The notes beneath the pieces were generated by a model. The model ran no database searches and had not been told where the DNA came from. It saw only the letters and a list, made by a program, of their open reading frames with translations. From contig CM000151.3 of assembly GCA_000004695.1 (NCBI GenBank), positions 3,904,001 through 3,968,000 of the forward strand: 64,000 bases of DNA, written 5' to 3'. The DNA comes from Dictyostelium discoideum. Its lineage: Eukaryota. The position numbers were made by a program, and so were the translations under genes. Positions 7,402 through 14,063 of this stretch are shown piece by piece (positions within the stretch are counted from its first letter, which is position 1; the number at the start of each line of letters is the position of its first letter).

Positions 7402-10055
7402 TTATGTTGATGGTGTTAGTGGTTTAACTGAAAATAAATTTGGAATTCCACCAATAAATCCGCTCTTTTCTGATGGTTGTTGGTTTGTTGAGGTTGTTGT
7501 CGATCTAGTGGAAATTCCACTAAGGAATCCACTTGGTTTTGGTGTTTCATTAGCATTTGTTGTAGATATTGCTGGTGATGTTGTAGAAGGTTTTTTAGTT
7601 ACTGTAGGTGGTAAAGTTGGTTTTATATTTGAAAATTCACCGATGTATCCACTTTTTTCAGTGGTTTGCGTAATACCTCCAATCAATCCACCAAATGGAG
7701 CATTTCCAGTTGTTGAGGTTGATTGGGTATTTGAGGTTGGTATAAAACCTATTAAACCTGGCAATAGATTGGATGGCGGAGGAGTAGAATGCGTTTGAGT
7801 TGGGGTTGGTGTTTGAGTTTGAGTTTGAGTTGGTGTTTGAGTTTGAGTTGGTGTTGGTGTTTGAGTTTGAGTTGGAGTTTGTGTTTGAGTTTGTATTGGT
7901 TTTGGAGTTTGAGTTTGTGTTGGAGTTTGTGTTTGGGTTTGAGTTGGTGTTGGTGTTTTAGTTTGAGTTGGTTTTGGAGTTTGGGTTTGTGTTGGAGTTT
8001 GTGTTTGAGTTTGAGTTGGTGTTGATGTTTGAGTTTGAGTTGGTGTTTGTGTTTGAGTTTGTGTTTGTGTTTGTGTTTGTGTTGGTGTTTGTGTTGGTGT
8101 TTGTGTTTGAGTTTGTGTTTGTGTTGGTTTTGGAGTTTGTGTTTGTGTTGGAGTTTGTGTTTGTGTTGAATTTTGTGTTTGTGTTTGTGTTTGTGTTTGT
8201 GTTTGTGTTTGTGTTGGTGTTGGTGTTGGTGTGTGGGTTTGTGTTGGTGTTGGAGTTGGAGTTTGTGTTGGAGTTGGAGTTTGTGTTGGAGTCGGAGTTT
8301 GGGTTGGTGTTGGTGTTGGAGTTTGAGTTGTTGGTGTTTGTGTTGGTGTTTGCGTTGGAGTTTGTGTTGGTGTTGGTGTTTGAGTTGATGTTTGTGTTGG
8401 TGTCGAGGTTGGTGTATTGATTCCACCTAAAAAGCCTCCAAAGAAACCAGATGCTTTTGTTGGTGTTGGTGTTGGTGTTGTTGATATTGATGTTGGTGTT
8501 GTTGATATTGATGTTGGTGTTGAGGATGGTGCATTGATACCACCAAAAATGCCTCATAAGAAACCAGATGCTTTTGTTGGTGTTGGTGTTGGTGTTTGAG
8601 TTTGAGTTGGTGTTGGTGTTAGTGTTGGTGTTATTGTTGGGGTTTGAGTTGGGGTTGGTGTTAGTGTTGGTGTTGGTGTTAGGGTTTGAGTTTGTGTTGG
8701 TGTTGGTGCTATTGTTATTGTTGGGGTTTGAGTTTGTCTTTGAGTTTGTGTAGGTGTTGGTGTTTGAGTTGGTGTTGGTGTTGGTGTTTGTGTTTGGGTT
8801 GGTGTTGGTGTATTGTAACCTCCAAAATAGCCTCATAAGAAACCAGATGCTTTAGTTGGAGTGGGTGTTGGTGTTTGTGATTGGGTGGCTGTAGTTGTAG
8901 TTGTAGGTGTTGGTGTTGGTGTAGGTGTATTGTAGCCACCGAAATAGCCTCCTAAAAAACCAGATTCTTTAGTTGGAGTGGGTGTTGGTGTTTGTGATTG
9001 AGTGGGTGTAGTTGTAGGTGTTGGTGTAGGTAGTGGTTGGGTTGGTGAAGGTGTTTGAATAGGTTGTGTTGTACCAGTTGTTGAACCACCAAATAAACCA
9101 CCCAAGAAACTAGATACTGGTTTTTGAGTTGGATTTGGGGTTGGAGTTGAGGTTGGGGTTGGAGTTGATGAAAGTGTTTGTGCGGGTGTTGGTGTTGATC
9201 CACCACCACCTATAAATCCACCTAAAAAACCACTTGATGGTTTCGATGTTGGAGTTGGAGTTAAAGATGGTGTTACACCACCATTTGTACTTCCACCACT
9301 TATGAAACCACCAATGAAACCAGTACCACCACCATTTGGTTGGGTAGGTACAGGGGTTTGAGTTTTAAAACCACCACTACCTCCACCTAATAAACCACCT
9401 AACAAACCTGAAGATCCGCCACCTAATAAAGCACCACCAATTAAATGTGGGATATTATCAACTCCAATTAAACCAGAAGTTGATGTAACACGTGGACATA
9501 ATAATTTTGCTTCAATGATTGCACCAAATAAACCACTAAATAAATTTGATAGACCAAATATTGATTTTTGTACTCTTTCATCCATATTATCTTGATCCAT
9601 AATAATTATACCTTTATTAACTGGAATCCCATCTTTATTAAACAATTCAGGATAACAAAAGTTTCTATATTTTGAACATAATGAAGTAATCTTTACATCA
9701 ATATTATCAACTAAATAGTTTAAATCATAATTTTGATCTGTTAAATAATTTTTAATTCTTGATATAAAATATTTTTGTTTTTCATCTTCATTTAATTTAT
9801 TAAATAATTTTAAAGATACATCATTTTTATCATTCTAAAAATGGAAAATTAAAAATAAAAAAAAATAAAAATTAGAAAAATAATATTAAAAAAAATCTAT
9901 AAGATCCTTATAATAATTACTCTTAAATCAACTATAAATTTATTTCTGTTTATTTCATCAACTTCACTTTCTTCTTGATAGATTTCATTTGCATTAGAAT
10001 TTCCCATAAAAAATATAAAAATAAAAAGTATTACAATTATTTTTAATATTTTCAT
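7402..10055 (-). CDS. Secreted Thr/Pro-rich mucin-like repeat protein (paralogue C of a 3-gene cluster) with two in-frame TGA codons; possible pseudogene or strain polymorphism; 2 exons, about 855 codons
   Basis: Exon 1 is 9921..10055: signal peptide [22 protein letters not shown]...VDLR, donor GTAATT. The intron is 9835..9920. Exon 2 is 7402..9834 in a single frame (coordinate mod 3 = 1). ORFs 8833..9645 and 7402..7764 are parts of that frame, and the 1-kb stretch between them has no Met and so is absent from the track. The frame encodes NDKNDV...CSKYRNFC...[12 protein letters not shown], then about 7 xSGF[LF]GG[YFL][FI]GG motifs separated by (PT)n spacers, then 630 nt of (GTTTGA/GTTGGT)n hexamer coding TQTQTPTPT.... 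TGA codons at 8833-8835 and 8554-8556 both lie in the identical context GGTTTCTTATGAGGC (SGFL*G), where intact units have TTAGGAGGC. Confidence 0.6.
7790..8420. repeat. Imperfect hexanucleotide array (GTTTGA/GTTGGT/GTTTGT)n, about 630 bp, coding Thr/Gln/Pro repeats of the mucin-like gene; all three reverse frames are open
   Basis: Visible periodicity gtttgagtttgagttggtgtt.... This explains track ORFs 7958..8836 (TNTN...), 7752..8426 (HKHQ...) and the plus-strand ORFs 7789..8025, 7968..8420 and 8173..8388 as repeat artefacts. Confidence 0.9.
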
Positions 10056-10879
10056 TTTTTTTATTTTTTTTTTTTATTTTTGAAAACAAAAGATAGAATA
10101 TTAAAAAATATAATTAAAATTTAAAAAAAATTTATAATTAATAATTAAGTTTGAAATAAAATATAAAAAAAAATATGAAAAAAAAAAAATATCAGGATTT
10201 ATATATAAAAAACAATTATATATTTTAAATATATAAATTATTAATTCAATGTTTTTTTTAGTTTAATATTGTTCAATATTCAAACAAATAATTTCATTGA
10301 GCCCATTTATTATTATTAGTATGCTATATACTATGGTGATAACCATTAATGAAAAATAAAAATAAAAATAAAAATAAAAATAAAAATAAAAATAAAAATG
10401 TATAAAAACAGTTAACACAGTAAGAAACTGGGGGTAAACAATTTTCAACAATATAAATAGAAATTATTTGTATGTTAATCATTGGTCAATAACCCCCAAG
10501 TTGAACATTTATTTGTAAAATGGATTTTTCGATTTTTTTTAAAATTTTCATTAAAATCTACTTCTATATGGGTATTATATGGGTATATGGATACAATAAA
10601 AATACAAGTAATTATAATTTCAATAAAAAAAAGAAAAAAAAAAAAAAAAAAAAAAAATCTTCAGATTTTAACCATATAAACATTATGAAATTATTAAATA
10701 AAATGAAAAAATTAGATGTAAAAAAAAATTATAAATTACCTTATTTGTTTATTTTTTTAGTAGAAAAAGATAATAAAAAAAAAAAAAAAATAAAAAAAAA
10801 AAATTAAAAAAAAAAAAAATTAAAATAAGGTATATACTAAAGGAAATTGTTAATTTTAAAAATTTTTATTTATTTAATT

Positions 10880-13071: not shown

Positions 13072-13692
13072 TTAATGTTGTTTTTGAGGCAATAGTGGCG
13101 GTTTTGTTGGAGAAGAAGTTGTTAAACCACCAAGAACAGGTGTATTTAAAATTCTATCTCTATAACATTGAGCTTCTAATAATATACCAACTGTATCAAC
13201 GGTTAAATTAATTGCATCACCTAAAATTGGAATTTTACAAATTAACAATGTATTACAAAGTGTTTTAATATAACTTTCCAATGTAATTGGATCGAATCCA
13301 ATCTCTGAAAAATAATCTCTAATTTGATCTAAAAAGAATGCCAATATTTTATCATTTTCAAATAATTGAATTTGATTTGAAAATTTAACCATTGATGAAT
13401 TAAAATTATTATAATTTCCATTTTTAAATTCATCACTATTTAAAATTAATTTCATTTGTTTAATTTGACTATCAACATATATTTCACTCTTTTCATTACT
13501 TTTAAATTTAGTTTTTTTCCATTTTATCTATAAAATAAATAAAAAAAATAAAAAAAAAAAACCATTTAAGTAAAGGAATTTTATTTATTTATTTTTTTAT
13601 TTATATAATTTAATTTTTACAGGTGAAGCAAAACATGAACTAATTATTAAGAAAGAAATAAAAAATATTAATATAAACTTATTAATCTTCAT
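13072..13692 (-). CDS. Small secreted protein (paralogue B of cluster); 2 exons, 175 aa
   Basis: Exon 1 is 13621..13692: MKINKFILIFFISFLIISSCFASP (24 codons). The intron is 13528..13620 (GTAAAA...TTTTATAG). Exon 2 is 13072..13527: IKWKKTKF...CNTLLIC...CYRDRILNTPVLGGLTTSSPTKPPLLPQKQH*. It has the same architecture and orientation as genes A and C. Confidence 0.55.
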
Positions 13693-14063
13693 TTTTTTTT
13701 TTTTTTTTTTTTTTTATTAATATTTCAAATAAATTAAATTGAATAAATAATGAATATAAAAAAAAAAGTGCACAGAAAAAAAAAAAATAAAATAAAATAA
13801 AATTAAATAAAATTAAAAAAATAAAAAATTATTTGGTGCCAATTAACTAAATATAAAAACAAAATTTGTAATATGCAATGCTTTGAAAACCAGTTTATTT
13901 ACCACTACTTTCACCCCCACCATTTGTTTTCTTTGTTTTTTTTTTGGTTTTTTTTTAATATTAAAAATCTGTGTTTAAAAAAAAAATAAATATAACCATT
14001 TAAATGGGTCGCGGGAGTATGAAAATATTTATGATATTTTTTTTTTTTTTTATTTTATATTTT

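Follow-up and report, generated by a model that had tools for sequence, protein, structure and literature searches.

A conserved trio of adjacent, weakly similar genes for putative secreted proteins on chromosome 2 of Dictyostelium discoideum

A 64,000-nucleotide (nt) stretch of Dictyostelium discoideum chromosome 2 (contig CM000151.3, positions 3,904,001 to 3,968,000; hereafter the window, whose numbering is used throughout) is AT-rich, with short introns, and carries three consecutive minus-strand genes for putative secreted proteins, here called C (10055-7402), A (12187-10880) and B (13692-13072), each with a single GT-AG intron of phase 0. The gene models were rebuilt and compared with the corresponding loci of D. 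cf. discoideum (L001), a second D. discoideum assembly (GCA_054883475.1; L002), D. dimigraforme (L003), D. firmibasis (L004) and a D. purpureum scaffold (L005). The second D. discoideum assembly, which is 99.4% identical to the window across 20.7 kb, has been annotated independently with products of 175 (B), 392 (A) and 855 (C) amino acids (aa) at the corresponding places, and because these lengths agree with ours the three models are considered sound. In addition, the product of B is an exact match to the hypothetical protein DDB_G0274747 (Q555X8) of D. discoideum AX4, the protein encoded by A is encoded with identical sequence in L002, and the exon-intron junction of C (GATTTAAGA followed by GTAATT) is kept in four species. 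Rebuilding and the independent annotation thus bear out the coordinates that a first-pass annotation, made from the sequence alone, had given for the three genes. Its description of their structure held in part: exon 1 encodes purely a signal peptide in A and B (22 and 24 codons), but in C 23 of the 45 residues are acidic mature sequence, and the intron range of 86-127 nt accommodates C (86 nt) and B (93 nt) but not A (129 nt).

All three proteins start with a signal peptide recognizable by inspection, with a basic n-region, a hydrophobic core and small residues at positions -3 and -1 (VLS/E, CFA/S and SNA/N), which suggests that they are secreted and supports the earlier claim to that effect. 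The N-terminal domain that follows (N-domain) contains IT-xx-CS-x5-C in A and C and leads into LLGGLIGG (A) or LLGGLLGG (C); the strings previously quoted as shared, ITYACSYKPEKC and LLGGLLGG, were found, as were the Pro/Thr/Gln tails. Protein B is essentially an N-domain alone, with three Cys and VLGGLTT, followed by a short Pro-rich tail. In protein A, the N-domain and LLGGLIGG are followed by a stretch rich in Q and N, then a charged helical one, a Pro/Gln/Thr tail and a C-terminal motif, DYxxYFDQFLxIVDLFTQKY (DYASYFDQFLNIVDLFTQKY), whose conservation reaches D. purpureum. Protein C has an N-domain of about 130 aa with three Cys and a Gly-rich LLGG segment, to which it adds about 650 residues of Thr/Pro/Gln spacer and then a unique C-terminus. 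The tail of C is mucin-like in composition (34% Thr, 18% Pro, 13% Gln, 8% Gly), and dispersed through it are 12 G-Φ-Φ-G-G-Φ-Φ-G-G motifs (Φ being Phe, Leu, Ile or Tyr), such as GFLGGFIGG and GFLGGYFGG; this regular grammar of hydrophobic Gly motifs is the only unusual feature of the trio. At the DNA level, the TQ/TP repeats of C are encoded by about 100 GTTTGT hexamers (plus strand) at 7793-8403, where the local GC skew is 0.77 and the AT skew -0.59. Each of A, B and C has only two to three Cys, and none of them contains Cys-rich repeat modules of the EcmA/B or Cot type. AlphaFold2 models, computed for C from the single sequence and for A from a seven-sequence alignment, are all-helical and of low confidence (predicted local distance difference test, pLDDT, of 36 and 47), so far as they go pointing to an N-domain that is probably small and helical throughout.

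The arrangement of the three genes is old. The order queuosine-salvage gene (Q_salvage), B, A, C and, on the opposite strand, a Band_7 gene is constant in L001 to L004, and D. purpureum has the order Q_salvage, B, A, C on a contig that ends within C, before any Band_7 gene. A gene order common to five species indicates an old syntenic trio and not a recent local amplification. The description of the cluster as locally amplified was therefore misleading, as the trio and its order are older than the split between D. discoideum and D. purpureum. N-domain identity is 75-97% among the close species and about 47-51% to D. purpureum, and the rest of the 64-kb window yielded no additional paralogues. 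In two of the comparison genomes, the existing public annotations join the queuosine-salvage gene and the B orthologue in one model (D. purpureum, L005 6748-8977, and D. firmibasis, L004 6733-9230; 492 and 515 aa); these fused models are probably annotation errors.

Database searches returned little beyond the orthologues. A profile of the three N-domains, run with HMMER against 1.84 billion representative proteins, a library from which C-type proteins are absent, recovered only clusters of A and B orthologues, their D. purpureum counterparts and one bacterial low-complexity match, with no relatives in other dictyostelid groups. Pfam gave no match near the cut-off for A, B or C, and a PDB profile search gave nothing at E<=1. 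A word-index homologue search returned only three orthologues for gene A and none for the N-domain of C; since the Band_7 control in that search also missed the AX4 protein, absence from the word-index database is uninformative on annotation. The statement that the trio belongs to no named family was borne out by this lack of Pfam, PDB or other matches, and as far as can be seen from these sequences the trio appears confined to group-4 Dictyostelium.

The relationship among A, B and C was measured at two levels. At the level of single sequences, Smith-Waterman scores were compared with those of 1000 shuffles, giving z=4.6 for A-C (1/1000 shuffles reach the score) and z=3.8 for B-C (4/1000). 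At the level of families, five orthologues per family were used and the alignment columns were shuffled, which retains both composition and within-family relatedness; here z was 4.7 for A-C (1/400), 5.7 for B-C (0/400) and 2.1 for A-B (12/400). With the Gly-rich ends removed, z fell to 2.4 for A-C (26/1000) and stood at 3.8 for B-C (5/1000) and 2.2 for A-B (27/1000), all with p<=0.03. Comparison of the family profiles with hhalign gave P=3.5e-4, 0.025 and 0.069 for the three pairs, and placed one common segment in register in all of them (A, IGQIQEYANKYNLNQNQLVSVITYACSYKPEKC; B, LDQIRDYFSEIGFDPITLESYIKTLCNTLLIC; plus the C counterpart). The motif aligned in every pair is h-x-x-I-x-x-Y…L…I-x-x-x-C-x5/6-C, then LLGG, and in A, B and C alike the domain terminates in (L)LGG(L).

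Two in-frame TGA codons (8835-8833 and 8556-8554), on which the first-pass annotation was silent, interrupt the reading frame of C. Both lie within the repeat KASGFL(stop)G(Y/I)FGG, whose sister repeats have Gly at that place, and both are surrounded by an identical 24-nt repeat context (AAAGCATCTGGTTTCTTATGAGGC). Gene C has equal length in the window and in L002 and differs at five bases, two of which convert TGA to GGA. All five differences are non-synonymous or nonsense, and comparison with the orthologues identifies the window state as derived at four of them; elsewhere in the roughly 20 kb compared with L002 there are nearly no coding differences. This pattern suggests reference errors or a lab-strain allele. 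In four other genomes, the exon-2 open reading frames (ORFs) of C are uninterrupted, with 810-1027 codons and the same motif grammar, and in the window itself the frame remains open for 383 further codons after the second TGA, including the non-repetitive C-terminus with its GF[IL]GG motifs. The TGA codons would then either stem from wrong base calls of the reference in a difficult repeat or mark a truncation specific to the strain, in both cases outside the design of the gene, and, judged from the orthologues, the evolutionarily maintained gene C is the full 10055-7402 ORF. Further downstream, 36 nt past the TAA of C, a minus-strand G5 run at 7362-7366 within AATAATTGGGGGTTTGGGTC is a relic of an ancestral C-terminus (…KQIIGGLNPFGRN), which remains part of the ORF in D. 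dimigraforme and D. firmibasis; the ORF of D. discoideum and D. cf. discoideum has come to end earlier.

Upstream of the genes, the first-pass annotation had reported a G5/C5-containing element 200-530 bp from each, and such elements were found at 220-535 bp from the ATG codons (A, 12722-12714; B, 13921-13912; C, 10499-10490). Its statement that they stand out is correct against the local AT-rich background, where the three upstream regions hold four G5 runs compared with 0.78 expected from their own dinucleotide shuffles (2/2000 shuffles reach four), but not against the window as a whole, where G5/C5 runs show no enrichment (18 observed, 17.3 expected). Ten of these 18 runs are in AT-rich DNA, and six of the ten fall between 7.1 and 13.9 kb. 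Four-species alignments of the upstream regions revealed several conserved blocks, listed in the table below. The most conserved of them lies upstream of C, where the conserved element consists of AACTTGGGGGTT paired with an inverted AACTGGGGGTAA; the inverted copy of the core (ACCCCCAGTT) precedes a conserved stretch at 10420-10399. Upstream of A, D. discoideum and D. cf. discoideum alone have the G5 box GGGGGTGTG; three of the four species share the second box GGTGTGGG, of which the fourth has a degenerate version, and the strongest footprints lie away from both, at 12849-12830 and 12491-12446. The element upstream of B (TGGGGGTGAAAGTAGTGGTAA) is retained in degenerate form. Because they are locally enriched and conserved across species, the G-rich elements are very probably functional, as far as can be judged from sequence. 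A post hoc observation is that each of the three genes has TTRCAAAT near a G-run in a conserved upstream block (TTGCAAATAAAAG in A, about 12461-12473; TTACAAATTTTG in B, about 13865-13876; TTACAAATAAATG in C, about 10508-10520). A scan of the promoters for inverted repeats was overwhelmed by runs of A/T.

These elements had been likened to the G-boxes and CA-rich elements (CAEs) bound by GBF. The definition of GBF targets as paired G/T-rich (C/A-rich) promoter half-sites reportedly goes back to work of Hjorth, Schnitzler and Powell-Coffman. By this count, A has two boxes, B has one good and one weak box, and C has only GGGGG/CCCCC cores. The likeness extends to A and B, which carry alternating G/T boxes, but not to C, whose element looks different. 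Octamers of the GBF-style form KGKGKGKG number 23 in the window compared with 5.2 expected, at about a dozen scattered sites; because they occur at many unrelated places, they do not mark the trio specifically.

Published RNA-seq and proteomic data bear on two gene identifiers of the region. DDB_G0274747 (B) and DDB_G0274751 are both listed under UP_Hr12_rapid by Rosengarten 2015 (PMC4403905, Additional file 7, sheet filter_UP), and both recur in the longest column of that sheet, which appears to be UP_Hr14_gradual; DDB_G0274751 is additionally listed under UP_Hr07_gradual, the identities of the columns having been deduced from column lengths and rate of descent. In whole-cell proteomics, both replicates showed the DDB_G0274751 protein at the fourth stage, culmination, and at no other stage (Banu 2026; PMC12821622). 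The assignment of DDB_G0274751 within the trio is positional. GenBank accessions and DDB_G numbers run in step (EAL70266, EAL70271 and EAL70280 correspond to numbers ending in 47, 57 and 75), and a GT49-type (LARGE / B4GAT1-like) glycosyltransferase-like ORF at 22317-23342 (minus strand) is probably gnt15 (DDB_G0274741). The position of this gnt15-like ORF implies that DDB_G identifiers rise as window coordinates fall, which makes A DDB_G0274749 and C DDB_G0274751. Additionally, UniProt has automatically named DDB_G0274751 "Transmembrane protein", a name that fits a protein without recognizable domains but with a hydrophobic N-terminus and is unfit for the domain-bearing neighbours, which supports its placement in the trio. 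On this positional basis, DDB_G0274751 is very likely either A or C, and probably C. Two 151-aa genes of L003 that were considered as a UspA marker for the order of identifiers proved on checking not to be UspA. No identifier of the DDB_G027474x or DDB_G027475x series is mentioned in the main text of the papers searched, and the trio genes are not in the supplements of Kin 2018 or Glöckner 2016.

Table 1. Coordinates of the parts of genes C, A and B and of associated sequence features in the window
Feature	Position	Strand	Remarks
Gene C, exon 1	9921..10055	-	Signal peptide of about 22 aa plus 23 acidic mature residues; rebuilt model
Gene C, intron	9835..9920	-	86 nt, GT-AG, phase 0; rebuilt model
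Gene C, exon 2	7402..9834	-	N-domain to unique C-terminus; conserved frame closes at TAA 7404-7402
Gene C, first TGA (codon 379)	8833..8835	-	GGA (Gly) in L002 and D. cf. discoideum
Gene C, second TGA (codon 472)	8554..8556	-	Matching 24-nt repeat context; GGA in L002
Gene C, most conserved non-coding block	10490..10529	-	40 nt, invariant in four species; 3' end is the G5 element CTTGGGGGTT
Gene C, second conserved block	10399..10437	-	TTACCCCCAGTTTCTTACTGTGTTAACTG; holds inverted copy of the AACTGGGGGT core
Gene C, third conserved block	10326..10346	-	ATGGTTATCACCATAGTATAT
Gene A, exon 1	12122..12187	-	22-codon signal peptide; rebuilt model
Gene A, intron	11993..12121	-	129 nt, phase 0; rebuilt model
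Gene A, exon 2	10880..11992	-	N-domain to conserved C-terminal motif; whole protein 392 aa
Gene A, two G/T-rich boxes	12667..12722	-	GGGGGTGTG (12722-12714) and GGTGTGGG (12674-12667)
Gene A, conserved block	12446..12491	-	TGGGGTAAAATAAATTATTGCAAATAAAAGAAAAGTTGTAAAAAAA; four-species alignment
Gene B, exon 1	13621..13692	-	24-codon signal peptide; rebuilt model, product matches DDB_G0274747 / Q555X8
Gene B, intron	13528..13620	-	93 nt, phase 0; rebuilt model
Gene B, exon 2	13072..13527	-	N-domain plus short Pro-rich tail; whole protein 175 aa
Gene B, G/T-rich bipartite element	13893..13921	-	GGTGGGGGTGAAAGTAGTGGTAAATAAAC; degenerate form kept in four species

Just 3' of the stop codon of gene B, at 12941-13038, lies a 47-nt palindrome, 91% complementary, between a poly-A and a poly-T run. 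A tRNA scan found nothing.

The explanation that we favour, with moderate confidence, is that C, A and B form an old, syntenically fixed group-4 trio of distantly paralogous genes for secreted proteins, which are post-aggregative and likely matrix components. Several results weigh against this explanation. Similarity above a shuffled background reaches significance for the pairs A-C and B-C, but A-B taken by itself does not, 284 of 1000 shuffles attaining its Smith-Waterman score; without the Gly motif, the similarity is marginal (p about 0.005-0.03). A common fold is conjectural, the predicted helices being of the low confidence given above. In the window sequence itself, C would terminate at codon 379. 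Developmental regulation, as had been proposed, is seen for B and for DDB_G0274751, which appears to be A or C, but DDB_G0274749, the identifier that falls to A, is in no differential-expression list (PMC4403905), and the equation of DDB_G0274751 with C (or A) is drawn from position. It could be argued that A, B and C are unrelated, lineage-restricted genes for secreted proteins that are neighbours by chance, and that their similarity reflects a bias toward certain amino acids (N, K, I, L and Q) together with short Gly motifs. The weak A-B score is what such a view would predict, as are z values of only 2.2-3.8 without the Gly tails and hhalign probabilities of only 1-37%. A single 5' intron following a signal peptide is, moreover, common in the D. 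discoideum genome. This alternative is nevertheless unlikely: the same I-x-x-Y … L … I-x-x-x-C-x5/6-C motif falls in register in three of three alignments, B-C beats 995 of 1000 composition-preserving shuffles, and adjacency, orientation and gene structure are older than the D. purpureum split and have persisted. Because the similarity tests combine with the kept adjacency, the common orientation and the common gene structure, distant paralogy, weak but detectable in these sequences, appears to be the better reading of the trio.

The status of C and the control of the trio admit alternatives of their own. The two TGA codons could mean that C is a pseudogene or truncated allele in this strain, with translation ending at residue 378 and the downstream 1.4 kb non-functional, and the derived state of four of the five differences from L002, all non-synonymous or nonsense in a region otherwise nearly free of coding differences, is in line with such decay. 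Base-calling errors in a hard-to-sequence repeat would give the same pattern, however, and the two TGAs share one identical 24-nt context; the non-repetitive C-terminus still lies in open frame and retains GF[IL]GG, the gene is intact in L002 and four other species, and for DDB_G0274751, provided that it is C, both transcription and protein have been detected. A pseudogene or truncated allele of this kind is possible but doubtful. The conserved open frame beyond both TGAs and their shared context might alternatively suggest decoding as selenocysteine or by programmed readthrough, to which we give almost no weight: a selenocysteine insertion sequence (SECIS) or any other Rfam match is absent from 6000-14500, the orthologues and the other D. 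discoideum assembly have Gly (GGA), neither Cys nor selenocysteine, at these positions, and the motif has no redox context. The maintained form of C is on this evidence the full-length frame. As for regulation, the G-rich elements may be GBF sites and the trio part of a GBF-dependent post-aggregative regulon, since binding of GBF to G-rich motifs has been described for prestalk as well as prespore genes (PMC6598861). In agreement with this proposal, two alternating G/T boxes separated by 40 bp lie upstream of A, and one, together with a weaker GTAGTGGT, upstream of B; the boxes of both are partly conserved, and B and the gene equated with C are induced at 12 h, the onset time of post-aggregative genes. 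Against it, the deeply conserved element of C is TTGGGGGTT / ACCCCCA and not of the GTGTG type, the G5 box of A is absent in D. dimigraforme and D. firmibasis, and the KGKGKGKG excess across the window (23 compared with 5 expected) means that the presence of such octamers does not discriminate. GBF control, like a matrix or coat location of the products, can at present be advanced only as a tentative hypothesis.

If the favoured explanation holds, each protein would consist of a signal peptide and a helical N-domain with a Cys-x5/6-Cys loop ending in a hydrophobic LLGG. Beyond that domain the three proteins differ, B having little more, A adding a Q/N-rich region, a charged helical region and a conserved C-terminal helix, and C its mucin-like spacer. 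Induction at the tight-aggregate stage, at about 12 h, is abrupt for B and probably for C, and would likely be driven by the conserved upstream modules, including the G-rich elements, with the acting transcription factor suggested by likeness. Most likely, the proteins would be components of the extracellular matrix in the multicellular stages, whether of the slime sheath, the stalk or the sorus matrix; C would then serve as a scaffold with heavy O-glycosylation, and the N-domain common to all three would mediate assembly or interaction.

Known systems offer partial parallels. PsA and the spore-coat protein SP96 are PT-repeat or mucin-like developmental glycoproteins of Dictyostelium, with a signal peptide, Thr/Pro-rich tracts of the O-glycosylated type and induction after aggregation. 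The trio resembles glycoproteins of this type in its signal peptides, long Thr/Pro-rich tracts and post-aggregation induction. Unlike them, C has regularly spaced G-Φ-Φ-G-G-Φ-Φ-G-G motifs inside its mucin tract; C and A lack a glycosylphosphatidylinositol (GPI) signal as well as the Cys-rich repeats characteristic of Ecm and coat proteins, and their N-domain matches no known family. Similar to the GBF-regulated post-aggregative genes cprB, cotC and pspA, whose promoters carry G-box/CAE elements, the trio has G-rich elements a few hundred bp upstream in AT-rich DNA, and B is induced at about 12 h; for the trio, however, GBF dependence is only putative, the element of C is not an alternating G/T box, and such boxes are frequent across the window. 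By functional analogy, C also recalls the FG-repeat (GLFG) nucleoporins, in which short Phe/Leu-Gly motifs stand between polar disordered spacers, whereas C is apparently secreted and has Thr/Pro-rich spacers that presumably bear glycans; without sequence homology, it is not a member of that group. This analogy leads to a speculative and rather improbable extension, namely that C may be a secreted "sticker-and-spacer" gel former, with its 12 hydrophobic Gly motifs as stickers and O-glycosylated Thr/Pro tracts as spacers, nucleated by the Cys-loop N-domain common to A and B, so that the trio would represent a group-4-specific matrix-assembly system of the slime sheath or sorus matrix. Were this true, such a system would be built on a domain without known relatives.

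These results change no general principle, as lineage-restricted, mucin-like secreted proteins at multicellularity are expected in dictyostelids. They indicate that the reference sequence of gene C probably contains two errors, or else represents a truncation specific to the strain, which bears on its annotation, and they make the 40-nt block upstream of C directly testable in reporter constructs. If the favoured explanation is correct, three "hypothetical proteins" of a model organism would gain a family relationship, a developmental window and conserved promoter blocks.

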